Positions 7,773 to 61,361 of a stretch of DNA of 64,000 nucleotides are shown piece after piece (the first letter of the stretch is position 1; each line of letters starts with the position of its first letter). This stretch comes from Bacteroidales bacterium (GTDB taxonomy: Bacteria; Bacteroidota; Bacteroidia; Bacteroidales; JAADJA01), in NCBI GenBank assembly GCA_030596605.1, contig JAUVJI010000004.1, forward strand, positions 464 through 64,463. The letters run 5' to 3'. The translations under genes were made by a program, and so were the position numbers. The notes beneath the pieces were generated by a model, which saw only the letters and a list, made by a program, of their open reading frames with translations, was not told where the DNA came from and did no database searches.

Positions 7773-7775
7773 CGA

Positions 7776-8834
7776 CTAAAACTTCAAATGAATTCCCCTT
7801 TTTAAAAATTCAAAAATAGTAATTTCATCGCACATAACCTTGCACCGTACGGCCATACCCGGAAATATCTTTTGTATTTTTCCTTCGATGAGTGCTTTTG
7901 CTATAACCATTTGCTGATTCGACATTAAATTTACATTCCCATCCAAACCAATAAATGACGCGTCAATTTTATCATCATACCCTGGAATTGAAAATCGAAT
8001 GGCCGAAATTCTGTTAAGGTATTGGATATTATGCATTTTAACCGGAATTTTCAATAAGAATTGATTTGTATCGCTTACTGCTAAGATTCCATCCAATACT
8101 GAATTAAAACTAACAATACCATTAATGGGAGACTTAATGTAATATTGTTGCTTTAAACTATTCATGGTTTCAATTTGCTTTGTATATGATTCTACCTTTT
8201 GCTGAATATATTCAATTTGCTCTGATTTTTCACCTGTTTCTATAGACAGCAACTCATTTTGAGCTATTTGAACATTTATCTCTGCCAAATAGTAAGAATT
8301 TTCATAAATCTCAAATTCTGCAAGAGAAATAACACTGTCGTTAAAAAGCTCAAGTTGCCTGTTATAATTTTTTTCTGCCAAAATAAGCTGCTGCTTTGCA
8401 AAAATCAGTTCCTGCTCCTGTTCATCAATCAGTTCTTGCTTTTGACCCGCAATATTAGCATTAAGAGCAGCAAGTTCGACTTCTTTCAAATTTTCCAGCT
8501 TGATAATTTCATTTTCAATAAAAAAAGAGTGGATATAGGCAATGGTGTCAGTATGGGTAATATAATCATCTGATTTCAATCCATCCTTAATATGTACTTC
8601 AGCAATATCGCCACGTTCAAACTTATACCCTTTTAAATGACTAATAACATTGGTTCTGAAATCATGAAGTTCACTAACGTAATTATCGTCCTGACCCCTA
8701 TTAAGATACCATTGCTGGGATGGAAACACCAAAGCCGTTGCTTCAAAGCTGTAAGGAATCTTAATTGGAAGAAACATTACCAGAAAAATAAGTACTAATA
8801 TAACCGATAAAATCGTTCGCCTGCTAAACCTCAT
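7776..8834 (-). CDS. HlyD-family membrane-fusion (periplasmic adaptor)-like protein
   Basis: N-terminal TM anchor, a long Q/E/L-rich coiled-coil hairpin, then a beta-barrel-like tail (IKSPINGIV...). Its stop lies 3 nt from the VTC gene start. Confidence 0.5.
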   Translation of the reverse strand: MRFSRRTILSVILVLIFLVMFLPIKIPYSFEATALVFPSQQWYLNRGQDDNYVSELHDFRTNVISHLKGYKFERGDIAEVHIKDGLKSDDYITHTDTIAYIHSFFIENEIIKLENLKEVELAALNANIAGQKQELIDEQEQELIFAKQQLILAEKNYNRQLELFNDSVISLAEFEIYENSYYLAEINVQIAQNELLSIETGEKSEQIEYIQQKVESYTKQIETMNSLKQQYYIKSPINGIVSFNSVLDGILAVSDTNQFLLKIPVKMHNIQYLNRISAIRFSIPGYDDKIDASFIGLDGNVNLMSNQQMVIAKALIEGKIQKIFPGMAVRCKVMCDEITIFEFLKRGIHLKF

Positions 8835-26686: not shown

Positions 26687-29600
26687 TTGATTTTAGAAAA
26701 GACTTTTTATTTGGAGCGGATTGTAAGATATAGTTTACTCTTCACTTTATTGATGTTTATTTGTTCCATTGCCTGGGGAAACACCCGAACTGGATGGCAC
26801 ATAGCAGATAATCATTACAAAGTGAACAAATTTTTATTCCCTCCTGATTCAATTACAGGTAATGACACTACCCAACACATCAACCTTCCCTACCCGACCG
26901 AAGAAGAACAATTTCCATATACAGGTGATGATAATACAAATCCTCTTTTCTTAAAACCTCCTTCTAATTTAGAAACTGAGGTTGAATATGATCCTGAAAC
27001 CGGTCAGTATATCATGAAACATAAAATGGGAGAGTTGGATTACAGGTCTCCCACTTATATGTCGCTTGAGGAGTACAGGGAATATGACCTTGAAAATTCG
27101 GTAAGTGAATATTGGCGCGAAAGAGCCAAGGCTGCCGGTGTAGGCACCAGAAGTGGTATTATTCCTTCCATTTATATCGGAGGTAAAGCATTCGATAAAA
27201 TTTTTGGAGGCCACACCATAGATATTCGCCCTTCAGGTACAGTGGAATTAATTTTTCAAATAATTGGTAATACAAGAGATGACCCTACCCTTGATGTAAA
27301 CCAAAGAAGCCAGGTCAATTTCGATTTTCAGGAAAAGATCCAAATGAATGTAGTAGCTAAAATCGGAGATAAAATTGAATTCAAAACCAATTATAACACC
27401 GAGGCTACCTTTGATTTTGAAAATAAACTTAATCTTAGTTACGAAGGTGACGAAGACGAAATCATTCAATTAATTGAGGCCGGTGATGTAAGTCTTCCCC
27501 TCAACAGTTCTTTAATAACAGGAAGCCAGAGTTTATTCGGCATAAAGACCAAATTAAGATTTGGCAAAACAACAGTTACAGCGCTCTATTCTGAGCAAGA
27601 AAGTGAAACCTCAACCATTACTGTTCAGGGAGGCGCTCAAACCAATGATTTTCTTTTAAAAGCTGATGATTATGAAGAGAAAAAACACTTCTTCCTTGCT
27701 CATTATTTCCGTGATAACTATGAAAAAGCCTATGCCGATTTACCCATCATTACTTCCAGTATAAATATAACTAAAATTGAAGTATGGGTAACAAATATAG
27801 GAGCCGCTGTAACTCAGAACCGTAATATTGTAGCCTTTACTGATATTGGTGAATATGAAAAAATTCACAGTAATAAAATCTTACCTGATAATAATTATGA
27901 TCAGGCGCCACTTCCCGATAACAGAGCCAATACTCTGTTTTCAATTCTCGATTCAAATCAAATGAGAGACATAAATAAAGTGAGTAATCATTTATTAAGC
28001 GAAGGTTTTGTGCAGGGTGAAGATTTTGAAAAAATAGAATTAGCCAGAAAATTAAATCAAAATGAATATTCCTTCAATAGCAAACTAGGGTTTATTTCAC
28101 TGCACAGCACTTTAAACTCAGATCAAACACTTGCAGTAGCATTTCAATTCCAGAATATCGGAGACGAAACCATTTTCCAGGTTGGCGAATTTTCTGACGA
28201 AGGAATTACAGGCCAGAATTGTCTTATGGTCAAACTCCTTAAAAGCACTTATGTAAATATCAGAAGCCCTATCTGGGATTTGATGATGAAAAATGTTTAT
28301 GCGCTCAACGCCTACAAGGTAAACAGGGATGATTTTACTTTAAATATTCTGTATTCAGGAGATGAAACCGGTGTACCAACGGGTTATTTTGAAGAAGGCC
28401 CGTTTAACGGAGATCCTTTAATTAATGTTTTTAATCTCGATAACCTTGATGCCCTGGGAAATCCACTCCCTAATGGTGATGGTGTTTTTGACTTTCTTGA
28501 TAATGCAGCCACACAAGGTGGTACTATCAATTCTTCAAACGGTAGAATATTTTTTACAGTTCTGGAACCATTTGGAAGCTATTTAAGAAAAAAATTCGGA
28601 GAAGAATATGAAAACCTTGCTAATAAATACTGCTACGACTCACTTTATACCTTAACAAAAACCGGCGCCCAGCAATATACTGAAAAAAACAAATTCTTAA
28701 TCTCAGGTTATTATAAGTCGCAGTCGGGTTCTGAAATTTCTCTTAATGCCTTAAATGTGCCTCAAGGATCGGTAACCGTAACAGCCGGAGGTACTCCCCT
28801 GGTTGAAAATGTTGACTATACGGTAGATTATACATTGGGCCGTGTGAGGATCATTAATGAAGGAATATTAAATTCCGGTACACCCATTAACATCTCGATG
28901 GAAAGTAATACACTTTTCAGTATTCAAACTAAAAGGTTAATGGGCGCCCACATTGATTATGACTTTAGCAAGGATTTCCATATTGGTGGTACCATATTAA
29001 ACCTGCATGAACGACCTTTAACACAAAAGGTTAATTACGGTGATGATCCAATATCAAATACTATTTGGGGATTGGATTACAGCTATCAGACAGAATCCAG
29101 GTTTATCACCAAACTGGTTGATAAATTACCATTCATCAGTACTTCCGCTCCCTCAAATATTGCTATTGATGGTGAATTTGCACATTTTCTACCGGGTCAT
29201 TCCAGGGCAGTTGGAGGCGAAGGTGTATCATATATTGATGACTTTGAAGGAACGGTCTCTACCATTGATCTACGCGGATATACTTCCTGGTACCTGGCAA
29301 GTACCCCGCAATTCCAGAATGACCTGTTTCCGGAAGCCAATATTTACGGGGATAAAAGCAGTATAGCTTACGGATTTAACAGGGCTAAAGTCGCTTGGTA
29401 CGTAGTTGATCCCAGCGTATTTTACGACAGGAACAGCAGCTTAAGGCCACCAAATATAACCAATGATGAGCTTTCGAATAACTATGTAAGGCAAATTCTG
29501 GAAAAAGAAGTATTTCCAAATAAAGAAATCGCACAAGGAACACCTACAAATATTGGGGTGTTTAATATGGCATTTTATCCCAGCGACAGGGGACCCTATA

Positions 29601-32600
29601 ATTACGACTCCTGGCCAACAGGAATTTCTGCCGGTATCAACGAAGATGGTACACTTGCAACTCCCGACTCAAGATGGGGAGGTATTATGCGCGAAATCAC
29701 AACTCCTGATTTTGAAGCTGCAAATATTGAATATATTGAATTCTGGATGATGGATCCATTTGCAGAAGGCTCACCAAATACGACAAATAGTGGTGGTGAG
29801 CTTTATTTCAATCTTGGCGACATTTCTGAAGATATTTTGAAAGATTCGCGCAAAAGTTATGAGCACGGATTGCCTATTTCCGAAAATTTTGATGAAACCG
29901 ATATTATTAATACAGTTTGGGGCCGTATACCTAATAAACTTGATCTTGTACAATCATTTTCGAATGAACCCGGTGCTCGTGATTACCAGGATGTAGGCTA
30001 TGATGGATTAAGGGATGATGATGAAAGGAATTATTTTACAGAATTTTCGGAATATGATAGCGCTTATTATTATTTGGATAACCTGAAAACCTTGTATGGG
30101 GAAAATTCAACAGTTTATGAAATTGCTAATTCAGATCCTTCTGGTGATAACTATCAAAATTACCGTGGAGATGATCTTGATATTGATGATACTTATTCCA
30201 GTGTTCTTAGAAGATACAAAGAATATAACGGGCCTGACGGAAATTCTCCAGAAAATGTAGATGGTGGTGATTATGAAGGAAACACCAGGAAGCCTAATGT
30301 TGAGGATTTGAATAATGATAATACTTTAAGCGAAGGAGAAAGATATTTTCAATACAGGATTATTTTAAAACCCAATAAAATGAAAGTTGGTGAAAACTAT
30401 ATCACCGATATTCAGGAAGGGGAGGCAGATCTTGCCAATGGTGAAACTACTACTGTTAATTGGTATCAGTTTAAAATTCCAGTTAAAACTCCGGATAAGA
30501 TAGTTGGTAACATTACTGATTTCAGGTCAATTCGGTTTATGAGAATGTTTTTAAAAGAATTTTCAGAACCTGTCGTTTTACGTTTTGCAACACTTGATCT
30601 TGTAAGAGGAGAATGGAGAAGATACCCTCCCAGCGATGAAATGCTTGAACCCAATGTTTATCTTACCAGTAGCCAGCTGAATGCCAAATCATTTGATTTA
30701 TCTGCTGTAAACATTGAGGAAAACGGAAAAAGAGAACCCATTAATTATGTTGAACCTCCCGGTATTGAAAGAGAGGTAAACATCGGAACAACAAACCTGA
30801 CACGGATGAATGAGCAATCGATGGTGATGCGGGTTTGCGATCTTGCCGACGGCGACGCAGCTGCAGCTTATAAAACAGCTGAATTTGATTTCAGGCAATT
30901 CAAAAAACTCAAAATGTTTGTACATGCCGAAAAGTCGAGAGAGGATGATGTTTTAAAACAAGGGGATCTTACTATATTTATTCGGCTTGGTTCTGACTTT
31001 ACCCAAAATTACTACGAATATGAAATTCCTCTCAAACCAACTGAATGGAATGATGCAAGTACTCCTGAAAAAATTTGGCCAGAAGAAAATGATTTTGAAA
31101 TTGACCTGGAACAACTGGCCAATGTTAAATTGGAAAGAAACACTGCCATGCGGCAAGAGGGATCGGATATACAATTAAATTCGCCTTACTATGCATACGA
31201 TGGAACTCATAGGATAACGGTTCGGGGATCACCCACCCTTAGCGATGTTAAAGCTATGATGATCGGGATTCGAAATCCTGTAAAATCAGCTCTAAACCCG
31301 GAAGATGATGGTACGACAAAGTGTGCTGAAATTTGGGTGAATGAACTTCGGTTAACTGACTTTAACAAACAAGGTGGCTGGGCAACAACAGGACGTGTGG
31401 CAATGAATCTTGCCGACCTTGGTAATCTCGTAGTCTCAGGAACGTACAGCTCTCCCTGGTTTGCAAGCCTCGATAAAAAAATAACCGAGATACAGCTTGA
31501 CGCTATGTCACAATTTGATATTGCCACCAATCTGGAATTAGGAAAGTTTTTCCCTGAGAAATCCGGTGTTAGAATCCCGATGCACTTCGATTACTCACAG
31601 GTTAAAATAAAACCTAAATTTAATCCACTCGATCCTGACCTTGAACTGGACGTAGTACTGGATTCATATGATATTAAAGATGAAAGGGATTCAATTAAAG
31701 CGCTTACCATTGATTACACCAGGCGTAAAAATATTAACTTCATGAATGTAAGAAAAGACAGGGTTGGCGCCCAAAAAAAATCAAGAATATATGACATAGA
31801 GAATTTTGATCTTTCTTATTCATTCAGCGAAGTATATCACAGGAATGTAGATATTGAATATGATGTAGAACAAAATCACATAGGCGGTATTGGATATAAT
31901 TTTAATACAAATCCCAAAAATGTAAAACCTTTTGAAAAAATTGGTTTTATCTCTAAAACCAAAGCCCTGCAGTTTCTTAAAGATTTTAATTTTTATTTCC
32001 TGCCAAAAATGTTCTCTTTCCGGACTGATATGAACAGGATGTACAATGAAAAAAAGCTAAGGAATAAAAGCCTTGGAAATGTAATAACAAATGTCACTTA
32101 TAATAAAACATGGGATTGGAACAGGATTTATGATCTGAAATTTGATCTTGCCCAATCCTTGACCTTTAGCTTTAATGCAGTTGCCAATAGCTATATTGAT
32201 GAATACCCAGAATCTAATAAAATAATTTGGGATAGTGGTGATTTGGATGGTGATGGATTTGATGATGAAATTACACCGGATCAAAAGCAACAGAAGGTAA
32301 AAGACGAAATATTCAGTGGCGGAACAAAAAGCAGGTATACTCAAATGGCCAGTTTCAATTACAACCTGCCAATAAATAAATTGCCTCTTCTTGATTGGGT
32401 AACAGCTACTGCCGGTTATAACGTGTCGTACAACTGGACTGCACCGCCAAAAGCAATGAAGGCTTTAGGAAACACGATTTCAAATAATGTTAACTGGAAT
32501 ATTAATGGTAATGCTGATCTTAATAAGTTATACAATAAACTTGATTTTCTCAAAAAAATAAACCAACCGCCCAGAAAACGATCCGGTAAAAAAGGCCAAA

Positions 32601-34057
32601 AAAAACAAGCTAAAAATCCGGACGATACCACAAAAGTTACAAAACCAAAAGTTAATTATGGTAAAATAGCTTATGAAACAGTATTAAGATTATTAATGAG
32701 CGTAAAAAAAGTATCCTTCCAGTATTCTCAAAATCAAGGAACTACACTGCCGGGGTTTATGCCTGAGGCATCCATACTTGGCAACGACTGGAATAAAAAT
32801 GCTCCGGGATTCAAGTTTATTTTTGGCGCCCAACCGGAGAGCCCTGAATATTTTAACAAGGAAGGATGGCTTTCTCAAGATTACCGGCTGAATACATCTT
32901 ATATGCAAATGGCCAACAAGAATTTAAGCTTCCGGGTATCCCTTGAACCTTTCCGTGACCTAAAGATAGATCTCACTGCTGATCGAACGTATGCACAAAA
33001 CTTCCAAACACTCTATGTTTATGATACAATAGATGGCAGGTTTATTGAAAACAGCGCAATGCAAATGGGATCCTTTTCCATGACATATATTACCTGGGGG
33101 ACTGCCTTTGGGGGATCACTTGAAAATGAAAAATCACAGTATTTTGAAAACATGCTGGATTACAGGTATGATATTGCAAATCGAATTGCCAATGATGACC
33201 CCAGGGACTTAGTTGTGAATGACTCTACAGGTTTTCCTGAAGGATATGGCCCTACATCTCAAGCAGTTCTGCTACCATCCTTTGTAGCAGCTTATTCCAA
33301 TAAATCGCCTGAAAGTGTCAGTCTCGATGCATTCCCGACAATTCCTTTGCCTAACTGGAGGATTTCCTATAATGGGTTATCAAAAGTTACATTCCTCCAG
33401 GGAATCTTTAAAACTGTAACGCTTAATCATGCTTATAATTCAAGTTACAATATTGGTTCCTTCACTACAAGTATAAACTTCTTACCAGATACAATTAATG
33501 GAATGGTTGTTCCGACCAGTAAAAATCCAAATAACGGTGATTACTATCCGGAATATGATTTTGCGGTTGTAACTATTATGGAGCAATTTAGCCCGCTTAT
33601 CAATATTGACATGACATTTCAAAACAGTTTACTTGCAAAATTTGAAATGAAAAAATCAAGAAATTTATCCATGAGCTTTGCAAACAACCAACTAACGGAG
33701 GTTTCCAGTGATGAATTTATTATCGGATTAGGATTCAGGTTTAAAGAAGTCCCTGTTAATTTATCCAGATTGACGGGCGGAAAAGGAAAAACTTTTAAAA
33801 GCGATTTAAATATAAAAGCCAATTTCTCAATAAGAAACAATAAAACGGTATTGCGAAATATTGATTCAGACATCAATCAGGTTTCAGCTGGCCAAAAAGT
33901 TACCGGAATTAATGCTTCAATCGATTATATGTTATCTAAAAGTTTAACATTACGGCTGTTTTATGATAAAATTACAACAAATCCATTCCTGCCATCACAA
34001 TATAGAAACTCTACATGGAGTGGTGGTATCAGTCTTAGGTTTTCACTGGCTCAATAG
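26687..34057 (+). CDS. sprA: T9SS translocon / gliding-motility protein SprA
   Basis: A 2456-aa outer-membrane giant with size, N-terminal signal region and repeated beta-strand composition typical of SprA. The ruvA-sprA adjacency is common in Bacteroidota. The listed start is a TTG, so the true start is uncertain by up to about 25 codons. Confidence 0.88.
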   Translation: MILEKTFYLERIVRYSLLFTLLMFICSIAWGNTRTGWHIADNHYKVNKFLFPPDSITGNDTTQHINLPYPTEEEQFPYTGDDNTNPLFLKPPSNLETEVEYDPETGQYIMKHKMGELDYRSPTYMSLEEYREYDLENSVSEYWRERAKAAGVGTRSGIIPSIYIGGKAFDKIFGGHTIDIRPSGTVELIFQIIGNTRDDPTLDVNQRSQVNFDFQEKIQMNVVAKIGDKIEFKTNYNTEATFDFENKLNLSYEGDEDEIIQLIEAGDVSLPLNSSLITGSQSLFGIKTKLRFGKTTVTALYSEQESETSTITVQGGAQTNDFLLKADDYEEKKHFFLAHYFRDNYEKAYADLPIITSSINITKIEVWVTNIGAAVTQNRNIVAFTDIGEYEKIHSNKILPDNNYDQAPLPDNRANTLFSILDSNQMRDINKVSNHLLSEGFVQGEDFEKIELARKLNQNEYSFNSKLGFISLHSTLNSDQTLAVAFQFQNIGDETIFQVGEFSDEGITGQNCLMVKLLKSTYVNIRSPIWDLMMKNVYALNAYKVNRDDFTLNILYSGDETGVPTGYFEEGPFNGDPLINVFNLDNLDALGNPLPNGDGVFDFLDNAATQGGTINSSNGRIFFTVLEPFGSYLRKKFGEEYENLANKYCYDSLYTLTKTGAQQYTEKNKFLISGYYKSQSGSEISLNALNVPQGSVTVTAGGTPLVENVDYTVDYTLGRVRIINEGILNSGTPINISMESNTLFSIQTKRLMGAHIDYDFSKDFHIGGTILNLHERPLTQKVNYGDDPISNTIWGLDYSYQTESRFITKLVDKLPFISTSAPSNIAIDGEFAHFLPGHSRAVGGEGVSYIDDFEGTVSTIDLRGYTSWYLASTPQFQNDLFPEANIYGDKSSIAYGFNRAKVAWYVVDPSVFYDRNSSLRPPNITNDELSNNYVRQILEKEVFPNKEIAQGTPTNIGVFNMAFYPSDRGPYNYDSWPTGISAGINEDGTLATPDSRWGGIMREITTPDFEAANIEYIEFWMMDPFAEGSPNTTNSGGELYFNLGDISEDILKDSRKSYEHGLPISENFDETDIINTVWGRIPNKLDLVQSFSNEPGARDYQDVGYDGLRDDDERNYFTEFSEYDSAYYYLDNLKTLYGENSTVYEIANSDPSGDNYQNYRGDDLDIDDTYSSVLRRYKEYNGPDGNSPENVDGGDYEGNTRKPNVEDLNNDNTLSEGERYFQYRIILKPNKMKVGENYITDIQEGEADLANGETTTVNWYQFKIPVKTPDKIVGNITDFRSIRFMRMFLKEFSEPVVLRFATLDLVRGEWRRYPPSDEMLEPNVYLTSSQLNAKSFDLSAVNIEENGKREPINYVEPPGIEREVNIGTTNLTRMNEQSMVMRVCDLADGDAAAAYKTAEFDFRQFKKLKMFVHAEKSREDDVLKQGDLTIFIRLGSDFTQNYYEYEIPLKPTEWNDASTPEKIWPEENDFEIDLEQLANVKLERNTAMRQEGSDIQLNSPYYAYDGTHRITVRGSPTLSDVKAMMIGIRNPVKSALNPEDDGTTKCAEIWVNELRLTDFNKQGGWATTGRVAMNLADLGNLVVSGTYSSPWFASLDKKITEIQLDAMSQFDIATNLELGKFFPEKSGVRIPMHFDYSQVKIKPKFNPLDPDLELDVVLDSYDIKDERDSIKALTIDYTRRKNINFMNVRKDRVGAQKKSRIYDIENFDLSYSFSEVYHRNVDIEYDVEQNHIGGIGYNFNTNPKNVKPFEKIGFISKTKALQFLKDFNFYFLPKMFSFRTDMNRMYNEKKLRNKSLGNVITNVTYNKTWDWNRIYDLKFDLAQSLTFSFNAVANSYIDEYPESNKIIWDSGDLDGDGFDDEITPDQKQQKVKDEIFSGGTKSRYTQMASFNYNLPINKLPLLDWVTATAGYNVSYNWTAPPKAMKALGNTISNNVNWNINGNADLNKLYNKLDFLKKINQPPRKRSGKKGQKKQAKNPDDTTKVTKPKVNYGKIAYETVLRLLMSVKKVSFQYSQNQGTTLPGFMPEASILGNDWNKNAPGFKFIFGAQPESPEYFNKEGWLSQDYRLNTSYMQMANKNLSFRVSLEPFRDLKIDLTADRTYAQNFQTLYVYDTIDGRFIENSAMQMGSFSMTYITWGTAFGGSLENEKSQYFENMLDYRYDIANRIANDDPRDLVVNDSTGFPEGYGPTSQAVLLPSFVAAYSNKSPESVSLDAFPTIPLPNWRISYNGLSKVTFLQGIFKTVTLNHAYNSSYNIGSFTTSINFLPDTINGMVVPTSKNPNNGDYYPEYDFAVVTIMEQFSPLINIDMTFQNSLLAKFEMKKSRNLSMSFANNQLTEVSSDEFIIGLGFRFKEVPVNLSRLTGGKGKTFKSDLNIKANFSIRNNKTVLRNIDSDINQVSAGQKVTGINASIDYMLSKSLTLRLFYDKITTNPFLPSQYRNSTWSGGISLRFSLAQ

Positions 34058-41281: not shown

Positions 41282-42205
41282 ATGAAATGGCAAAATTACA
41301 TAAATGGATTTAAGGAATATTTAAGACTTGAAAAAGCTTTATCTGCAAACTCCGTAGATGCATATATCCATGATATTGAAAAATTTGTTCAATTTCTTCA
41401 AACAACAAATAAGGAAATTTCACCCGACCAGGTAAAATTAAAAGACCTTAAAGATTTTTTACTCTGGATAAACTCATTTGGATTGTCGGCAAAAACCCAG
41501 GCCCGGATTATTTCCGGGATCAAAGCATTTTATAAATATTTAATTCTTGAAGATTTAATCCGGCAAAATCCTGCAGAATTATTGGAAAGCCCAAAAACAG
41601 GAAGAAAGCTTCCGGATACTTTAAGTCTTAAAGAAATCAATAAACTGATTGATACTATTGACCTGAGTAAACCGGAAGGAATCCGTAACAAAGCTATACT
41701 TGAAACTTTATATAGCTGTGGGCTGAGAGTTTCAGAATTGATTAATTTAAAAATTTCCAACTTATATTTTAATGATGGATTTATAAAGATAACAGGAAAG
41801 GGCGATAAGGAACGCCTTGTTCCAATTGGAAAAACTGCCATTAAGCATATCAAAATTTACTTAGAAACAATAAGAGCCTTTATGGATGTTAAGAAAGAGA
41901 GTTCAGACATCCTGTTCTTAAACAAACGAGGAAATAGGTTAACACGTGTAATGATTTTTATTATTACCAAAGACCTGGCGGAAAGAGCTGGTATAAATAA
42001 AACAATCAGCCCACATACTTTCCGACATTCATTTGCAACACATTTAATTGAAAGAGGAGCTGATTTAAGGGCAGTCCAGGAAATGTTAGGCCATGAATCC
42101 ATTACTACTACTGAGATTTATACCCATTTGGACAGGGAATATCTCAGGGCTTCCATTTTGCAATTTCATCCGAGGTCGGAGATAAATCTTAAGAAAAAAC
42201 TTTAA
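41282..42205 (+). CDS. xerD: Tyrosine site-specific recombinase XerD
   Basis: N-terminal SAM-like domain (YLRLEKALSANSVDAY..D...F). Catalytic residues are visible in ...GLRVSELINL..., HTFRHSFATHL, GHESITTTEIYTH. 307 aa. Confidence 0.85.
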   Translation: MKWQNYINGFKEYLRLEKALSANSVDAYIHDIEKFVQFLQTTNKEISPDQVKLKDLKDFLLWINSFGLSAKTQARIISGIKAFYKYLILEDLIRQNPAELLESPKTGRKLPDTLSLKEINKLIDTIDLSKPEGIRNKAILETLYSCGLRVSELINLKISNLYFNDGFIKITGKGDKERLVPIGKTAIKHIKIYLETIRAFMDVKKESSDILFLNKRGNRLTRVMIFIITKDLAERAGINKTISPHTFRHSFATHLIERGADLRAVQEMLGHESITTTEIYTHLDREYLRASILQFHPRSEINLKKKL

Positions 42206-55226: not shown

Positions 55227-55442
55227 TTATTTCCTAGGTTTTTCATTTTCTTTCCCAGAAGAATATGATACTCTAATTTTTTTACATTTACTTTTAATTC
55301 TCACAATCTTTTCATTCTTGTTTAATATAGATTCAAGGTTTGATACGTAAGATTCCAAAAATTCGACTTTTTTGTATCCTAAATTCAACTTCTGACCATG
55401 TGGCACACTAACGTTTTGTGTATGAAGTGTTGGGCATTTCAA
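55227..55442 (-). CDS. Doubtful small ORF (71 aa, Lys-rich) at the left edge of the AT-rich insert
   Basis: Known only as an ORF with a non-ATG start. I recognise no motif. It may be a gene remnant or non-coding. Confidence 0.15.
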   Translation of the reverse strand: MKCPTLHTQNVSVPHGQKLNLGYKKVEFLESYVSNLESILNKNEKIVRIKSKCKKIRVSYSSGKENEKPRK

Positions 55443-55544
55443 AGCACTCCATTTTCAGTTTACCGTAAATTTTATTTATAGTTCTAAATTTCATTTTAAC
55501 CACTTATTGCCCAATGATTTATACACTTTGTAGGCATATGTGCT

Positions 55545-57899
55545 TTAATCATTCAACTTGGGTTTCGTGTTTTCTTTTAAAAAGTCATTCTCAAAGGAAT
55601 TACATAGATTGCTTTTTATCTTGTCGCGATTTCTACGATTAATTAGGGCTAAACCCCATTTATACCCATTTTTCACTTTGCTTTTATCAAAAATGTATGA
55701 TCTACCAAGCACCTCTATTAGGAGAACAATAATAAGTAAACCCCAAACATACCATTGATTAATTCCAATGGATTCTATGTATTCAATAATATTCTTGTTT
55801 GCTTTTAGAAATACGCCAATACCAACTGGTAAAATTGTAATTAACGAAACATAATGAAAGTAGCCAAAAGATTTCCAGAGTTCCTTTCTTTGTATTTTCC
55901 ATTTATCGTAAATGAAATCTTTTCTGTTAGCATTCCAATCATCCATGCTTTTTTCAAATGTAATCTTTTTACGTATTTTAGTGTTTTCATCAAGGCTGTC
56001 TTGATGTGATTTTTCCAATATGTCCAAACGACTTTCAAGTTTATCTATTTTTTCATCTTTATTCCGAATAGATTCTTTAAGTTTACTTTCTTTTGTTTCA
56101 AAATTCGTATTTAGCCGTTCTTTTTCATTGAGTAATTTTTGTTTTTCGGCTTCAGAATCACTAACAATATTTATTACTTTCTGTTTTTGAGTTTGAACTT
56201 CGGCTTCACTTAATTTTTTTTCTTCCTTAATTCTTTCGATTTCAATAGCTACCTCAGTTTTAATAAAATCTTCGGTAGTACTTTCTTTTTCATGCTTAGT
56301 AAATTCTTCAAAGAATAATTCACGTTTTATACAATTCATAATTATTTCTTCATCATCAATTCCTAAGTTTTTAAAAAATGACATTGATTTTTGAACCACT
56401 AATGATTCTTCGTAGTTTTCTTTTTCTAGGTTGGGTGCAGTAATAGATGAAATAAATGCCTTCCTATAATCATCTGTTTCAATTGGAATAAAAGGTCTTA
56501 TTCTTTTTATAAATATTGATGGTAGAATAAAATTTGGATTAATAACTCTTCCAGTATCTTTATTGTAGTTTTGTCTTTGAATATAATGATCAAAGTGAAT
56601 TAAACTTCTATCTAGGGTTAGACATACAAATTTCATTTCATCCTCATTGCCAAGTTTCACTCTTAACTTTTTAATTGCTTCTCTTAGAAATACATCATGT
56701 TCTATCTTCTTATCGTCTTTGTACAATGAATGATCATATCCTTTTTCGTCACATATTTTATTATAATACTTTTGAAAATCGTAATAATCTTTGATTCTTT
56801 CGTTTAGATATTCCTTGTTTTCCTTAAGTTCTTTAAATCCATTATTGTAAATTATTATTGATTTCGTTTTCAGAACATCACTGGCGTATCTAATTTTTTG
56901 GCTAGGATGTGGTGTTTCGCTATTTATTAACTTCCCTTCGTAATATTTCTTTGCAAAAGGATCTAGTTTATCTGAGTTAATCAGGGCACGAATATGAGAA
57001 ATTTTAAAATTTTCTCTTGGTATTACTTTCTCCAAGTAGTTTCTTGCTTTTTGAAGTTCTTTGTATGTTTTTGGAATGTAAACAAGTCTTAAATCAATCT
57101 TTTTTTCGTTAGCAATCCTCAAAATTTCATTAATTGCGCAATCATCAGGATGTTTTCTAAACTCTAAAATAGAATATAGGATATTTGTGTCAACTAACAC
57201 GATAAGATCCTTAATTTGAAGTCTTTTTATTTTGTCATAATCTTCTTGCGTAATTCCTAATGAATAAAATTTTTCAGCTCTATTAGCCAGTTTTGTAAGA
57301 TATCTTAATTCAGCTTCATTAAGTTTTATCGGATATTCAACAGTTAATAATTTAAATATAGATATTAGCTTTTCGCTTTTTAGTTTCTCGAAGGCTGATG
57401 AAGTTATATCATTATCGCCGTTTAGTTCATCCACTTTAAAGGGGAGAAATATATTAATAGCTTTTTTACCAAATACAAGAAAACATTCTAGCAAATATTC
57501 ATTAAATACATTCCATAATTCTTCTACTTCCTCGTCATTTAATTCAAAATCATCAATATTTGCAAGTATTTCTTTAAAAGAGTTAAATCTTTTTGTTCCT
57601 ATACCATCACTCGACAACTGAGATTTATGTATTTCTCCTTTGGCTATATCAAGAAGATTATATCTTCCATCCTTTTGTGTTAATTTATCCTCTTCTACAA
57701 GTTGATCTAAACAATTCTGTATTTCATACTCAATAGCCTCTAAATGAAATGTGTCTTTTATATACAGTAAGATCAAATCAATTGGCATTGCACCACCAAC
57801 ATTGTATATAACATTAACGATAAGGTCAGATAACATTTTTTCTCGATTATCTGATTTTGCTAAATATAAAGCCGATATTATTTGATCTATGTTTCTCAT
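55545..57899 (-). CDS. Multidomain protein: N-terminal wHTH-like domain, PIN-like nuclease domain, coiled coil, two C-terminal TM helices
   Basis: The PIN-like acidic quartet is in context: LIVLVD(237)TNILYSIL, IEHD(402)VFLREA, FVCLTLD(430)RSL. Residues 1-85 look like a winged helix (...CLDQLVEEDKLTQKDGRYNL). A heptad-rich E/K region spans about 550-650. Hydrophobic helices lie at about 678-699 and 715-733. Confidence 0.6.
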   Translation of the reverse strand: MRNIDQIISALYLAKSDNREKMLSDLIVNVIYNVGGAMPIDLILLYIKDTFHLEAIEYEIQNCLDQLVEEDKLTQKDGRYNLLDIAKGEIHKSQLSSDGIGTKRFNSFKEILANIDDFELNDEEVEELWNVFNEYLLECFLVFGKKAINIFLPFKVDELNGDNDITSSAFEKLKSEKLISIFKLLTVEYPIKLNEAELRYLTKLANRAEKFYSLGITQEDYDKIKRLQIKDLIVLVDTNILYSILEFRKHPDDCAINEILRIANEKKIDLRLVYIPKTYKELQKARNYLEKVIPRENFKISHIRALINSDKLDPFAKKYYEGKLINSETPHPSQKIRYASDVLKTKSIIIYNNGFKELKENKEYLNERIKDYYDFQKYYNKICDEKGYDHSLYKDDKKIEHDVFLREAIKKLRVKLGNEDEMKFVCLTLDRSLIHFDHYIQRQNYNKDTGRVINPNFILPSIFIKRIRPFIPIETDDYRKAFISSITAPNLEKENYEESLVVQKSMSFFKNLGIDDEEIIMNCIKRELFFEEFTKHEKESTTEDFIKTEVAIEIERIKEEKKLSEAEVQTQKQKVINIVSDSEAEKQKLLNEKERLNTNFETKESKLKESIRNKDEKIDKLESRLDILEKSHQDSLDENTKIRKKITFEKSMDDWNANRKDFIYDKWKIQRKELWKSFGYFHYVSLITILPVGIGVFLKANKNIIEYIESIGINQWYVWGLLIIVLLIEVLGRSYIFDKSKVKNGYKWGLALINRRNRDKIKSNLCNSFENDFLKENTKPKLND

Positions 57900-57945
57900 T
57901 TAGTTTTTAGTTTGTTACATATTTTTTTAGCATTCCAACTAACGT

Positions 57946-57979
57946 CAAAATTAGTTGCTGTTTATCAGTTGTTTACAAA
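57946..57979 (-). promoter_or_regulatory. Bacteroidota-type promoter for the PIN-TM gene (-33 TTTG, -7 TAATTTTG on the minus strand)
   Basis: The reverse complement of 57946-57953 is TAATTTTG (TAnnTTTG). The reverse complement of 57976-57979 is TTTG. Spacer is 22 nt, and the -7 box lies about 47 nt upstream of the ATG at 57899. Confidence 0.4.
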
Positions 57980-58073
57980 TGTTTTATTTTTTTTCTTTTT
58001 TCTATATTATCTTTGCTTTATTCCTTGTCGTTAGCTAAAATATTCAACGGAATTTTTCAGTAGGGGGATTATG

Positions 58074-58204
58074 CCTAACGTGTGGCGCTATGCTGCGTAC
58101 CGCTTTAATAACTCAAATTTTTCTGTTTATAAATACACTTTATTAATATGCATAAACTTCATATTTACAACTAATTGCGGTATGCAGTATGAGCGCGTGT
58201 TGGG
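58074..58204 (+). repeat. GC-rich imperfect inverted repeat (arms 58074-58103 and 58177-58204) around a 73-nt AT-rich spacer; candidate structured RNA or MITE-like element
   Basis: Hand pairing gives 25 pairs: 58089-58103 with 58177-58191, 58085-58088 with 58193-58196, and 58074-58079 with 58199-58204. Four of them are G-U pairs that are valid only in a plus-strand transcript. Confidence 0.5.
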
Positions 58205-58216
58205 TGTAGTTTGTTT

Positions 58217-59533
58217 TCATCCTTCTGTCAATAAAAATTTCTTTGTGAATGAATCCATCTTCGTTTTATAATGCTCTATTTCTTTAAGAGTCTTTTCAAG
58301 TTCAGTTAGTAATCCTTTTTTTGCAAGTTCAATTAGTTTTTCTTGTAATAATCTATAGTTAGTAAATGTTTCAATAAGTTCTTTATGAATTTCCCTTTTC
58401 TGAATAGGGACTACAATCGTATTTAATTCTTCTTCAATTTTTTTTATTCCAGCAATTAAGTGTAATATACTGACTGTTGATTTAATAAGTTTTTTCTGAT
58501 AATCTGTTTCTTCATCAAGTTCGTTAGCTACAAATAATGGTTTGTAGCCACTATTCATTATTTTCTTAATCTTTATTTTCCAATTGTCAATTAAAAACTC
58601 AGGAATTATTTCAGGGTATTGGGTTGAGATTTTCAATATCAAAACTTCATAAAGTTTTTTTAATTGTTCAATATGCTGCTCGGTAATTTCTCTATTATGT
58701 GCTTCTTCTCTTCGAATTATATTCAAATCTCCAATACTGTTTTCAAATTCAATTTTTGATTCAAATAAATGCTTAAAGTCCTTCCAGTTAGTGCAGATTA
58801 TTTTCTTTATTTGAATGAGGTAAGTATATTTTATTAAAATTGAACCATCATCAATTTCTTCATCGAATTGGTTTTTATAATCGAATTTGACTGACTTGCT
58901 TAATTTGGCACCAACTGAAATATTCCACCAATCATCCTTATGTTTTGAAGAAAGAATATCGACAATTATATAGCGTAACGAATTTTCTATTTCTGATATT
59001 TGCTTTTTTGCAATTCCTAATCTATAATCAGCAGTATTTTCCTGAAATAAAGTTGATTTTAACCAGTCAATAGAATTTCCATTTGAGATTAAACCAGCTG
59101 TTTCAACAGAAGAAATTGCATATAATATTTCTTTTTCTTGTTCATCATATGCTCGAACTGCAAAATAATCAGGTTTAATAGTGTCCGAGAAAGAATCATC
59201 TTTAAAGAATCCATATAAAAATCCCATAATTGTTCCAATCTCTAATTTAATATCAATTGAATTAGATTTATGAGGAAATATCTTGCATTCAATAGAATCT
59301 TTATTGAGAATGTTGATTTCTTTAACTTGGACTTTTCTTGTGTCATCCGTTAAAATGTCTAAATTTTGTAATCCAAATTTTAAGATGTCTAGAATTGATG
59401 AAATTGTTATTGGTAGTTTATCTACATTTCCTGATTTAGATTTGTCTTTTTTAAGACAACAATTCTTGTATTTTAATCCGCTTCCACAATAACAAGATTC
59501 GTTTCGCCCAATTCTATTTTTATTTAGTTTCAT
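58217..59533 (-). CDS. SEC-C-motif protein with a Swt1-like HEPN ribonuclease domain
   Basis: N-terminal CYCGSGLKYKNCC (SEC-C metal-binding motif, residues 14-26). Residues of about 180-300 fit the Swt1-type HEPN pattern: LRYIIVDIL...DDWWN......YLIQIKKII..NWKDF.HLF......IGDLNIIR(274)REEAH(279)N. The RX4H motif is encoded at 58697-58714. Confidence 0.62.
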   Translation of the reverse strand: MKLNKNRIGRNESCYCGSGLKYKNCCLKKDKSKSGNVDKLPITISSILDILKFGLQNLDILTDDTRKVQVKEINILNKDSIECKIFPHKSNSIDIKLEIGTIMGFLYGFFKDDSFSDTIKPDYFAVRAYDEQEKEILYAISSVETAGLISNGNSIDWLKSTLFQENTADYRLGIAKKQISEIENSLRYIIVDILSSKHKDDWWNISVGAKLSKSVKFDYKNQFDEEIDDGSILIKYTYLIQIKKIICTNWKDFKHLFESKIEFENSIGDLNIIRREEAHNREITEQHIEQLKKLYEVLILKISTQYPEIIPEFLIDNWKIKIKKIMNSGYKPLFVANELDEETDYQKKLIKSTVSILHLIAGIKKIEEELNTIVVPIQKREIHKELIETFTNYRLLQEKLIELAKKGLLTELEKTLKEIEHYKTKMDSFTKKFLLTEG

Positions 59534-59572
59534 TTAGTCAAATTATATCCAACCTTTGTTCGGTAAAGTTTT

Positions 59573-59956
59573 TCAATTGATTCTTGAAATAATTTCACTA
59601 AGAACAACGGGATGAAACTCTTCATATACTGTATTAGATCTTACATTATTCTTTTCTAATGGTCTTCCGATTACAAATTTTTCAGTTGAAAGCCACTTAA
59701 CGTTCCTCCCTGTTGAAACTAATCCGTTGTTTCTTAATATAATATTGTCACAAATAATTCCAATTGCTTTAACTGTTATATCTTTTCCACCAAAAGCTGC
59801 TTTAATATAAACGATATCTCCAACTTTCAATGATTGAAAATATTCTTGTAACTCTGGGGCATCTGTAGAATCCCAACCTACTCCAACCAAATTTTGACTA
59901 ATAAAGTCAGCACTAACATCTCTGTCATAAAAAGCACCTACACCATAAATTGCCAT
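59573..59956 (-). CDS. Small (127 aa) beta-rich protein of unknown function, possibly a PUA/EVE-like small barrel
   Basis: It is an intact ORF packed tightly in the operon. The pattern IYGVGAFY....V...FI..N.VGVGW....... LKVGDIVYIKA.....ITVKAIGII resembles N-terminal sensor modules of restriction-type ATPases. This is a resemblance only, not a motif match. Confidence 0.4.
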   Translation of the reverse strand: MAIYGVGAFYDRDVSADFISQNLVGVGWDSTDAPELQEYFQSLKVGDIVYIKAAFGGKDITVKAIGIICDNIILRNNGLVSTGRNVKWLSTEKFVIGRPLEKNNVRSNTVYEEFHPVVLSEIISRIN

Positions 59957-59961
59957 ATTTT

Positions 59962-60354
59962 CTATTTTTTTAATTTTTTAATGTGTTGTTTTAAAAGTTC
60001 AATTGCTTGATTGTTTTGCTTCTTTTCAATATTCAAGTCCTCAATATTACCCCTGGTACTGCGAATTTCCTTTTCTTTTGATTTAATTTTCCTGTCAAAT
60101 GAATTAGATTCCCTTTCTTTTTGTTTTCGTTTATTTTCTTTTGCCAATTTCGTTTTGGCTTTTTTTGCATCAGATTGAATAGATTTCATTCTTTCGGATT
60201 TTTTATCTTTTAAATCTACCCTTTCATCCTTCTGCTTATTCTGTTTTTTCTGTAATATAGGTTTTTTGACATCAATTACTTTATTTCTTTGTGTTATTTC
60301 GTTGATTGCATCTTCAGCTTCTGCTATTGTCAAGTCATTAATATTTTTTCTCAT
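59962..60354 (-). CDS. Lys-rich (strongly basic) coiled-coil protein, 130 aa, unknown function
   Basis: Intact ORF ending 5 nt upstream of the next gene. K/E/R dominate the composition (KKQNKQKDERVDLKDKKSERMKS...KENKRKQKERES...). Confidence 0.45.
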   Translation of the reverse strand: MRKNINDLTIAEAEDAINEITQRNKVIDVKKPILQKKQNKQKDERVDLKDKKSERMKSIQSDAKKAKTKLAKENKRKQKERESNSFDRKIKSKEKEIRSTRGNIEDLNIEKKQNNQAIELLKQHIKKLKK

Positions 60355-60810
60355 TGTATATATTTTATTTGTCAGTTAACATCAAGATAATGTTTACCTG
60401 AATTTAATTTTCAAATTACACCCAACTCGTTACTAATAGCACCCCAATGTCTCTTATTTCCACTATACCCCCATTTATCTGTTTTAAACACAAACTCACT
60501 AACTTATTATTAGCCAATTTCAAACTCGTGTTTACCTGCTTACAAACGACAAACAAACGTTTATTACCGGGTAAATTGGGTTTGTTGTACCATATCTCTA
60601 TTGAGTTTTGTATTAAACCGATAAAGATAAAAAAAATTGGTACTGCTGTTCTTTTATGGGTAAAGTTTTTTGGAATCGGAGATGATTGGGTTCGGGATTA
60701 CAAATCCCGAACAGCATCACAAATCGAACAGCATGGGTGTATAACGTCCTTGAAGTTACAAACTGGAGGTGCCATTCAATCACCATGTGTAAGTCAAGGG
60801 TTATAGGAGC

Positions 60811-60850
60811 TAATAACAAAAACTCACAGGATTAGTAACCCTGTGAGTTT
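60811..60850 (-). terminator. Rho-independent terminator of the decayed T9SS cargo gene
   Basis: An 11-bp stem (60820-60830 with 60840-60850) and a 9-nt loop. On the minus strand TTTGTTATTA follows. It lies 25 nt downstream of the remnant's stop. Confidence 0.5.
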
Positions 60851-60874
60851 AGAAAAATTTACCCTGTATTTTGT

Positions 60875-61256
60875 TTACAATACAACCACTTTTTTAGCAA
60901 CTGCACCTGATCCTCCAACAATAATACGGACATAGTAGATGCCTGCCGGCAACTCAGCCACATTCCATGAAGTCGTAAATTGCCCTTCAGGTAATTGGCG
61001 GTCTAAAATAGTTTATACTCTTTTCCCTGTAAAATCAATAGCTTCTATTGTTGTTATTGGGGTCGAAATTAGGACTTCCAATTGAGTCTGGTGAATTTGT
61101 CCCATCGGGAACAACTTCTTCTTCATCCGAATCATGAAATGTGCCGAGCATATCCTGTGCCCAAAGGTATTGTTTCATCAGTGTTTGACCCATTGCTCCG
61201 GGACTAAAGGTTTTGTCCATTAAATCACGATCCCACCGAAGGGATGAAAAGTCCAT
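60875..61256 (-). pseudogene. Decayed T9SS cargo gene; only the C-terminal sorting domain is recognisable
   Basis: The minus-strand frame reads ...QLEVLISTPITTIEAIDFTGKRV*TILDRQLPEGQFTTSWNVAELPAGIYYVRIIVGGSGAVAKKVVVL*. There is an in-frame TAA at 61013-61015. The upstream 73-aa ORF (61035..61256) is in a different frame, and no gene body is present. Confidence 0.6.
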
Positions 61257-61361
61257 TTGGAAATCAGGAGCAGTGGTTTGAATGTTATATCACAGGTATC
61301 AGCAATCTGACACCCCTTATCATAAAGTAAGGTAAACAGTGTTGCAGGGCAAATAAATATA

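Follow-up and report, generated by a model that had tools for sequence, protein, structure and literature searches.

A low-GC islet in a Bacteroidales chromosome is probably a decayed array of three integron-type gene cassettes

When several poorly characterized genes lie side by side on one strand, do they form a single system? The question is raised by an islet at ~55.4-60.4 kb of a 64,000-nucleotide (nt) stretch of contig JAUVJI010000004.1 (positions 464 to 64,463, forward strand; assembly GCA_030596605.1) from a bacterium of the order Bacteroidales. We refer to this whole stretch as the window, and all coordinates are those of the window unless another locus is named. The islet carries four minus-strand genes, here called gA to gD, which a first-pass annotation made from the sequence alone had interpreted as one candidate defence or abortive-infection system with two RNase-type effectors. 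Our analysis points elsewhere: the islet is likely a small array, now decayed, in which three gene cassettes of the integron type lie side by side. They would have been acquired and would function independently, each being a candidate conflict or defence gene. The four genes are the following.

59962-60354, minus strand: gA, an open reading frame (ORF) of 130 amino acids (aa)
59573-59956, minus strand: gB, an ORF of 127 aa
58217-59533, minus strand: gC, an ORF of 438 aa
55545-57899, minus strand: gD, an ORF of 784 aa

Re-reading the sequence, we recovered the same four ORFs as the first-pass annotation and the same intergenic gaps, of 5 nt (gA-gB), 39 nt (gB-gC) and 317 nt (gC-gD).

The four genes do not travel together

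We gathered the neighbourhoods of gB homologues (92 loci), of gC homologues (12 loci, in 6 distinct contexts) and of gD homologues (10 loci, in 4 distinct contexts), and searched these 114 loci, 939 kb in all, with all four proteins. Eighty-four loci contained gB only, eight contained gA and gB, twelve gC only and ten gD only. Neither gC nor gD was found in any of the 92 gB loci; gA, gB and gD were absent from all 12 gC loci, and the other genes from all 10 gD loci. The co-occurrence that had been assumed for the four genes as one cassette is thus missing from the 114 loci, except for gA with gB in the eight loci of the closest gB clade. The first-pass annotation had itself suggested looking for the four genes together in other genomes; even the homologues 86% identical to gC and 71% identical to gD stand solo.

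The surroundings of these homologues vary widely. The 86%-identical homologue of gC (locus L082) adjoins the rpsF-rpsR-rplI operon, and a 62%-identical one is isolated in a chromosome of the Bacteroidales, preceded by 1.3 kb of non-coding DNA. Further gC homologues are found in an integrase island, among housekeeping genes, and between a Type IIG restriction-modification (R-M) enzyme and RhuM/PDC-S05; in L178, the Type IIG enzyme (3.6e-294) and PDC-S05 lie on opposite sides of the gC homologue. Similarly, the 71%-identical homologue of gD (L081) sits between Cupin/AMP-binding and SASA genes, and others are located upstream of a Type I R-M operon (L168), next to a helicase/PLD locus and next to a chromate-resistance cluster. 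QatABCD lies beside gA-gB in L083-L085. No defence genes were found near the gC homologue of L177 (Polaribacter) or the gD homologue of L081.

The four genes do not form one system; they probably belong to three separately mobile units. It is very improbable that they constitute one undescribed defence or abortive-infection system in which HEPN and PIN RNase effectors act jointly. Such a system would fit the common strand and common low-GC islet, the close spacing of gA, gB and gC, and the nuclease-type domains in both large proteins, but it is contradicted by the zero co-occurrence in 114 loci, closest homologues included, and by two attC-type sequences described below, a site that divides gC from gD and a remnant that lies between gB and gC. 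In other loci, moreover, gC and gD homologues each form a cassette on their own.

An attC-like site lies between gC and gD

The attC site of an integron is an imperfect palindrome of 55-150 nt at the 3' end of an ORF. Its hallmarks are an inverse core site RYYYAAC and a core site G|TTRRRY, with crossover between the G and the TT. The spacer between gC and gD contains the following candidate.

58073-58205, minus strand: 133-nt attC-like site of the gC cassette, with R'' ACCCAAC, L'' GCGCTCATACTGCATACCGC, L' GCGGTACGCAGCATAGCGC and R' GTTAGGC

On the gene strand, ACCCAAC is followed by GCGCTCATACTGCATACCGC, ~70 nt, GCGGTACGCAGCATAGCGC and CACAC-GTTAGGC. The site is in gene orientation and begins 11 nt past the stop codon of gC. 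In our in-house scan it was the sole strict RYYYAAC...GTTRRRY hairpin in 64 kb. Its arms are 19-20 nt long with 2-3 mismatches, and its hairpin energies on the two strands are -32.6 and -41.8 kcal/mol, compared with -28.0 for the best of 40 composition-preserving window shuffles; folded with DNA parameters, it has z = -2.3. The "317-nt structured spacer" of the first-pass annotation holds up in that it contains one strong imperfect palindrome of 133 nt, but not as a whole: the full spacer is weakly structured (z = -1.78) because only the 133-nt part folds. We take the spacer to hold a recombination site of the integron attC type and not to regulate a four-gene operon.

The limits of the unit show in a comparison with homologous loci. 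In L082, the 86%-identical gC homologue is followed by the same AAACTAC-ACCCAAC-AC(G/A)CGCTCATACTGCATACCGC... sequence in another genomic context, and the 5' half of the site differs by 1 nt. Window positions 59559-58161 align with 8637-10031 of L082 at 87.9% identity, from the R' core site into the attC, and the flanks are unrelated. The core site before gC reads GTTGGAT-ATAATTTGA in the window and GTTGGGT-GTAATTTGA in L082. In L192 the gC homologue is followed by an analogous site of 117 nt (z = -2.5), and L191 and L001 likewise have one after theirs.

A gD homologue with 54% identity (P0006) offers an independent comparison. The same 2.5-kb unit, at 99.6% identity, occupies 9932-12467 in L171 and 6900-9435 in L174 (also L175, L176). 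The two contexts, of which one is a chromate-resistance cluster and the other a helicase/PLD locus, are unrelated. Identity extends from 69 nt upstream of the ATG to 121 nt past the stop codon, and the unit ends inside imperfect palindromes of 131-133 nt that start with GCCTAAC or CGCCAAC and end with AAAACGTTAGGC. The stop codon sits within GCCTAAC, and divergence begins exactly after the G of GTT. The switch between shared and unshared sequence falls at G|TT in two independent comparisons, window/L082 for gC and L171/L174 for the gD homologue.

Comparable sites recur around the other genes. gA-gB is flanked by near-identical attC-like sites on both sides in L088, by one right after gB in L102 and by one upstream of gA in L101; gB has canonical attC-like flanks in L112, L118, L128, L133, L134, L127, L150, L143 and L126, and gD homologues have them in L168, L171, L174 and L175. 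The sites of the window and of L088, L101, L102, L168, L171, L174 and L175 are 127-133 nt long with variable centres. This uniform length suggests a single type of integron, as in sedentary chromosomal integrons. When the attC-like sites were aligned with MAFFT, RNAalifold found no consensus structure; the alignment was not a structural one.

Could the palindromes instead be terminators, or repeats resembling repetitive extragenic palindromes (REP) or miniature inverted-repeat transposable elements (MITE), in an ordinary defence islet? The lack of an integrase, the single intact site in the window and the home-made scan behind the attC calls would all be compatible with this. However, ordinary terminators or repeats would not explain the conserved RYYYAAC/GTTRRRY ends with variable centres and a uniform length of ~130 nt, nor sites that start at most 11 nt from stop codons or overlap them (GCCTAAC, ACCTAAC), nor the exact G|TT switch in both comparisons, and no T-runs follow the sites. 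We consider this explanation improbable.

Two kinds of locus showed other arrangements. In L083-L085 (Sphingobacterium-type contigs), a same-strand run of genes for 172 aa, 156 aa (with a helix-turn-helix-like segment), gA and gB lies between a serine recombinase and insertion sequence fragments, 2 kb from QatABCD, and ends with a terminator, not an attC. In L001, a tandem/palindromic repeat GTAAAACGTTTTTTTATA(T/C)GTTTTGA... at 9674-9769, upstream of the solo gC homologue, is not attC-like.

Putative remnants of further cassette boundaries

Three further boundary candidates were identified in the window.

60411-60427, minus strand: R'-type core site GTTGGGT + GTAATTTGAA (17-mer GTTGGGTGTAATTTGAA), putative 5' boundary of the array
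59547-59564, minus strand: collapsed attC remnant between gB and gC, with R''-like ACCGAAC, AAAG and R' GTTGGAT, read from the sequence
55406-55535, minus strand: candidate decayed attC of the gD cassette, 130 nt, from GCCTACA to AAAACGTTAGTG (end core GTTAGTG)

The 17-mer at 60411-60427, upstream of gA, is found letter for letter before the start codon of the gC homologue in L082. A copy matching GTTGGGTGTAATTTGAA at 14 of 17 positions lies at 59553-59537, directly before gC, so that the same cassette-boundary sequence stands on either side of gA-gB. Plain attC x attC insertion does not account for this bracketing.

The 39 nt between gB and gC read ACCGAAC-AAAG-GTTGGAT-ATAATTTGACTAA-ATG, and homology to the gC cassette of L082 begins within this remnant, at window position 59559. 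At the corresponding place before its gC homologue, L001 has GTTGGGC-ATAATTTTAATTAG-ATG. We read ACCGAAC-AAAG-GTTGGAT as an attC that would have lost its centre, leaving the gA-gB cassette fused to the gC cassette.

At the far end of the islet, the outer arms of the 130-nt sequence at 55535-55406 still pair (GTGTAT/ATACAC and TTGGGCA/TGCCCAA), and its R'' GCCTACA differs by no more than 2 nt from the complement of its own cassette's 5' core, GTTAGGC. Its length fits the 127-133-nt sites, and it folds no better than shuffles (z = -0.65). It is possibly the decayed attC of the gD cassette, to judge from these matches. For all three putative cassettes, the inverse core complements the cassette's own 5' core within 1-2 nt: GTTGGGT/ACCGAAC, GTTGGAT/ACCCAAC and GTTAGGC/GCCTACA. 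This pairing, like the common length of the sites, makes the reading as three cassettes internally consistent.

A probable CALIN-like remnant of three cassettes

Since the window holds no integron integrase, the islet is best described as a remnant of three cassettes resembling a cluster of attC sites lacking integron-integrases (CALIN). Cassette 1 would consist of gA and gB, its attC collapsed to 18 nt and the cassette therefore physically fused to cassette 2. Cassette 2 would be gC with its intact 133-nt attC. Cassette 3 would be gD, probably with a promoter of its own, followed by a degraded attC. The three modules would have been acquired separately and would work separately. We assign the sites as attC from their motif, fold and position, from homology and from the mapped junctions.

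Several observations weigh against this interpretation. The window has one intact attC, and the other sites are an 18-nt collapsed remnant and a degraded site. A CALIN is defined by at least two attC sites within ~4 kb; of the sites here, one is intact, one has collapsed to a remnant (59564-59547) and the third is a degraded candidate of 130 nt (z = -0.65). Looking for the integrase/attI of a complete integron, we found no integrase in the window; its sole tyrosine recombinase is XerD (41282-42205; TIGR02225, 356 bits, cut-off 329.6), which reaches 153 bits with the integron-integrase model, whose cut-off is 265. If the criteria are relaxed, other parts of the window also give hairpins with the ends AAC...GTT, and shuffles yield 0-6 matches each; it is hence the quality, position and homology of the sites, rather than their number, that carry the attC argument. 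Independent contexts are few, six for gC and four for gD. Finally, gA, gB and gC are close enough for co-transcription and may have gained a functional link after fusion.

gC encodes a SEC-C protein with a Swt1-type HEPN domain

What, then, do the cassettes carry? gC exceeded the Pfam cut-offs for SEC-C (29.2 bits, cut-off 20.4, aa 10-27) and for HEPN_Swt1 (PF18731; 29.2 bits, cut-off 27.5, aa 182-302), and most of its homologues carry a precomputed PF18731 annotation. In the RREEAHNR motif of 25 homologues, R274 is conserved in at least 90%, and E276, E277, H279, N280 and R281 are invariant. The first-pass description of a Swt1-like HEPN domain with R274-x4-H279 (codons 58714-58697) behind a SEC-C motif is thereby confirmed, and from its sequence the HEPN domain looks active. 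The protein consists of the SEC-C motif, a conserved N-terminal domain of ~130 aa, the HEPN domain and a helical C-terminal tail of ~140 aa.

PADLOC matched PDC-M34B to the HEPN domain alone (1.1e-12, aa 179-292) and found no PDC-M34A component in gA, gB, gD or the neighbouring ORFs. We concur with the first-pass annotation that no named defence system matches, the PADLOC matches being confined to the gC HEPN domain (candidate PDC-M34B, no A partner), and that the four genes include no obvious antitoxin, ATPase or methylase. A literature search for PDC-M34, DUF8426 (the family of gB, see below) and PF28530 found nothing. Matches to the SEC-C motif predominated when contigs were scanned with the gC sequence alone, and L001 was the one true homologue recovered; tblastn of gC against the PLSDB plasmids returned SEC-C-motif matches only. 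R-M loci with embedded HEPN proteins of the Abi2/Swt1 clade have been described (PMC3710099).

gC would act as a stand-alone HEPN RNase of the abortive-infection type, its flanking domains holding the HEPN domain inactive until a phage cue, and through its SEC-C zinc motif the protein may be tethered to a partner, for example the ribosome or the Sec machinery.

gD encodes a probable membrane-anchored PIN-like protein

The AlphaFold2 model of gD aa 1-550 has a mean predicted local distance difference test score (pLDDT) of 82.7 and a predicted template-modelling (TM) score of 0.79. Its N-terminus gave local Foldseek matches to the LmrR/PadR winged helices (prob 0.97-1.0, TM score 0.58-0.72 on the target), a charged heptad-rich stretch covers residues 545-665, and hydrophobic helices lie at ~680-699 and ~713-737. 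Local Foldseek matches and sequence features thus agree with the winged helix-turn-helix (wHTH) N-terminus, coiled coil and two transmembrane helices of the first-pass annotation. The layout is a wHTH, a helical linker, a PIN-like domain at ~aa 230-470, a coiled coil at ~545-665 and two transmembrane helices.

For the PIN-like domain, the first-pass annotation had named D237, D402 and D430, and these predicted sites indeed proved invariant, as did T238, E281, H401, T428 and D437 (29 homologues aligned); the same acidic residues are kept in 61 distant relatives. The ~230-470 region is modelled as alpha/beta/alpha, with D237 after strand 232-236, E281 in helix 276-292 and D430 after strand 424-427. 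On the other hand, the fold match is weak and the window protein has no Pfam PIN match. Foldseek gave weak matches to VapC, SMG6-PIN, HARP and PRORP (E ~1, prob 0.3-0.75, and 0.6-0.75 for VapC, SMG6-PIN and HARP), and nothing at E<=1e-3 for the whole model. Seven of the 61 distant members match Pfam PIN, PIN_12, PIN_3 or PIN_5 weakly (best 6.3e-5), and no other enzyme family recurs. Weighing these results, we consider it quite likely that the predicted domain is PIN-like.

Profile searches of gD against PDB sequences returned coiled-coil/transmembrane noise or nothing; gD had no match in PADLOC, PHROG or NCBIfam, and no relatives of it were found in IMG/VR viral contigs. The family is large: a profile of the ~230-470 region identified 862 clusters (E<=1e-3) among 1.84 billion representatives, most of them ~750 aa long and of like architecture. 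As a candidate small partner, we compared the 54-60-aa ORFs downstream of gD homologues with the 71-aa ORF at 55227-55442. They are mutually unrelated, and a conserved gD partner or antitoxin is therefore rejected. gD would most likely be a stand-alone, membrane-anchored PIN-like nuclease whose wHTH would recognise nucleic acid and whose coiled coil would drive oligomerisation.

gA and gB pair a predicted Lys-rich coiled coil with an EVE/YTH-like fold

gA is 23.8% Lys, has a predicted coiled coil and showed no family match in domain-library scans. A gA-like ORF of 130-131 aa (39-50% identity) lies directly upstream of the gB homologue in L083-L088, L101 and L102, and in none of the 84 other gB loci; ~130-aa ORFs upstream of the distant gB homologues were examined as gA candidates and set aside, being not gA-like and in many cases spurious.

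The first-pass label "small beta-rich protein" for gB gives way to a more specific one: gB is DUF8426 (PF28530, precomputed annotation) with an EVE/YTH-like PUA fold. It has 445 homologues, which are 68-100% identical among the 120 matches listed; hosts among the matches listed are Bacteroidota, a Thiothrix plasmid and Fibrobacterota. Its AlphaFold2 model (pLDDT 87.9) matched, by Foldseek against the PDB, EVE structures (1wmm, 2hd9, 1zce, 2gbs), YTH m6A readers and the EVE-HNH protein VcaM4I, with E 3e-4 to 2e-3 and prob 1.0; all nine PDB matches at E<=1e-3 were EVE, YTH or EVE-HNH (TM score 0.45-0.65). W28, Y50, W88, F94, Y111, F114 and H115 are invariant and are candidate aromatic-pocket residues. 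Because of the EVE/YTH matches of its model, gB is probably a stand-alone PUA-like domain and a reader of modified bases, and it would bind a modified base in DNA or RNA. EVE domains occur in defence and restriction contexts (PMC7641849, PMC7897488).

Across its loci, gB has no fixed partner. Among the loci examined for effector-type domains directly downstream (L143, L153, L120, L106, L092, L090, L101), the adjacent genes encode TIR (L143, L153, L120), patatin (L106), RNase H (L092) and NOV_C, and in L101 an HNH effector-like gene follows gA-gB after 16 nt (PADLOC PDC-M68A, 4e-25). These neighbours reflect either defence-rich arrays or pairing with variable effectors.

The latter possibility leads to the most interesting rival still standing, in which gA, gB and gC are a functional unit: the EVE-like gB, together with gA, would sense modified nucleic acid and control an interchangeable downstream effector, and gD would be unrelated. 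The gaps measure 5 and 39 nt and neither holds an intact attC, so that co-transcription is likely, and the HNH, TIR, patatin and RNase H genes of L101, L143/L153/L120, L106 and L092 all lie downstream on the same strand; moreover, a PUA/EVE sensor combined with a nuclease is a known design (PMC7897488, PMC7641849). Yet gB is absent from all six gC contexts and gC from all 92 gB loci, and the R''/R' remnant indicates that gB and gC are two fused cassettes. An intact attC separates gB from the next gene in L090, L120, L150, L102, L118, L133 and L126. Integron arrays are rich in defence genes, so that adjacency may be a neighbour effect, and the partners of gB up- and downstream also include housekeeping and phage genes. 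We therefore rate such a unit as rather unlikely.

Upstream neighbours of gB homologues include KwaB, HerA, GmrSD_N and TerD. In L101, a 455-aa protein encoded at 7073-8440, upstream of gA-gB, ends in IRNALIH, a HEPN-type Rx4H, and has a weak Apea-like HEPN match (E 0.0096). Distant DUF8426-like proteins (28-44% identity) are encoded in the IMG/VR viral contigs L160/L184 and L185-L190; in L160, the gene lies between those for the terminase large subunit and the portal.

Are the cassettes defence genes?

A defence role for the cassettes is plausible from their genomic context and from the enrichment of integron cassettes in defence genes. Type I R-M, Type IIG R-M, PDC-S05, QatABCD and the helicase/PLD locus are the recurrent defence neighbours of the homologues, and integron cassettes are known to encode phage defence (10.1101/2024.07.02.601719; 10.64898/2026.03.17.712381).

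The cassettes might instead be addiction or array-stabilising modules, or have cellular functions of another kind, for instance in RNA turnover or modified-base metabolism. Chromosomal integrons commonly contain toxin-antitoxin cassettes that carry promoters of their own, and gD could be a wHTH regulator fused to a PIN toxin. In the same direction, the gC homologue in L177 and the gD homologue in L081 have no nearby defence genes, and housekeeping genes are among the neighbours of gB. A cognate antitoxin gene is absent, however, and the defence neighbours listed above recur, so that we hold a role other than phage defence to be unlikely.

The islet and its surroundings

The GC content is 0.284 in 55406-60503 and 0.353 in the remaining window, making this the lowest 5-kb stretch of the 64 kb and bearing out the AT-richer insert of the first-pass annotation. 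On its two sides lie a RidA/unknown gene pair and the gene for a TonB-dependent receptor. A search for an empty insertion site by exact matches to the RidA protein of this flank turned up only a 1.3-kb contig. The heptamer GTTAGTG, present at both islet edges (55412-55406 and 60503-60497), was considered as a junction mark and dropped: ~0.6 coincidences are estimated for the search space, and it may be due to chance.

TAnnTTTG is the -7 promoter consensus of Bacteroidota. One match precedes gD:

57946-57953, minus strand: TAATTTTG, a match to TAnnTTTG 47 nt upstream of the gD start, read from the sequence

A scan for sigma-70-like promoters gave 31 matches, not above the 32.7 expected from shuffles.

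Beyond gA, the 1 kb at 60355-61361 has a core-like GC content of 0.38-0.40 and no ORF with a family match, including a 73-aa ORF (61035-61256) and a 119-aa ORF (60447-60806). It contains a strong terminator-like hairpin with a 14-bp stem and a T-run (60820-60850, minus strand), 510 nt downstream of the TonB-dependent receptor gene. Elsewhere, the largest ORF of the window encodes 2456 aa (26687-34057, plus strand), and a protein with a type IX secretion system (T9SS) sorting domain is also encoded, which marks the genome as one of the Bacteroidota.

Significance

The supposed four-gene system with two RNases is removed as a false lead, and in its place stands what is probably left of an array of integron cassettes in a chromosome of the Bacteroidota. 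Integron arrays, CALINs, HEPN abortive-infection (Abi) proteins, PIN nucleases and EVE readers are known kinds; what is new is this decayed array with three uncharacterised families. Its three compact, independently mobile cargo units are single-cassette candidates for defence screens. If they protect against phage, they would add three single-cassette defence families (SEC-C/HEPN; wHTH/PIN-like/transmembrane; DUF8426 EVE-like), and the notion of integrons as defence-gene banks would extend beyond Proteobacteria. The putative attC collapse between gB and gC would also be a concrete example of separate cassettes turning into one operon.

A more far-reaching proposal is speculative, and we give it a small chance: gB, in the window together with gA, would be a portable sensor of modified nucleic acid that teams with a downstream effector in the same unit (HEPN here; HNH, TIR, patatin or RNase H elsewhere), with two- or three-part systems assembled by fusion through attC collapse. 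Independently, the 862 clusters to which gD belongs would represent a widespread new family of PIN-like defence genes, each a single gene whose product is anchored in the membrane.

Comparison with known systems

The islet resembles integron cassettes, CALINs and bacteriophage resistance integron cassettes (BRiCs) in combining ORFs with imperfect-palindrome attC sites (RYYYAAC/GTTRRRY), a single orientation and G|TT boundaries. It differs from them in that the window has no integrase, one intact attC and two decayed ones, and that cassettes 1 and 2 are fused. Like BRiCs, it consists of compact one- or two-gene cassettes, some with defence-type domains (10.1101/2024.07.02.601719); unlike them, it has a Bacteroidota host and attC sites of ~130 nt, and its three families have no match to the BRiCs described in the cited literature.

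gC shares with the Abi2/Swt1 HEPN RNases (AbiD/AbiF-like) and PDC-M34B an above-cut-off HEPN_Swt1 domain with a conserved Rx4H motif, and, as with HEPN proteins in R-M loci, one of its homologues lies between a Type IIG R-M enzyme and RhuM. It departs from the Abi2/Swt1 RNases and PDC-M34 in its length of 438 aa, its N-terminal SEC-C zinc motif, ~130-aa domain and ~140-aa tail, and in the absence of PDC-M34A. Rugutis, a single-gene Abi-like system of 359 aa from a Lactococcus plasmid, has an N-terminal SEC-C, and its trigger is the large subunit of the phage terminase (PMC11381338, PMC12184496). Compared by description only, it and gC have in common a single gene, a SEC-C at the extreme N-terminus and a mobile element; no HEPN domain is reported for Rugutis, and it is 359 aa long as against 438 aa for gC.

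gD is similar to PIN nucleases (VapC, the SMG6 PIN domain, HARP/PRORP RNase P) in its acidic D237-T-N after strand 1, E281, D430 and D437, and its predicted alpha/beta/alpha fold. In contrast to them, it has a helical insertion of ~120 aa with invariant H401-D402 and no significant sequence or structure match, its PIN-like domain is joined in one protein to a wHTH, a coiled coil and two transmembrane helices, and no VapB-type antitoxin is present.

Finally, gB shares its predicted fold (Foldseek prob 1.0) with the EVE/YTH/PUA readers PH1033, Atu2648, YTHDC1 and VcaM4I. Unlike these readers, it is a stand-alone protein of 127 aa in a separate Pfam family, DUF8426, with 7-14% identity to its structural matches, and it is unusually conserved, at least 68% identical across phyla among the matches listed.

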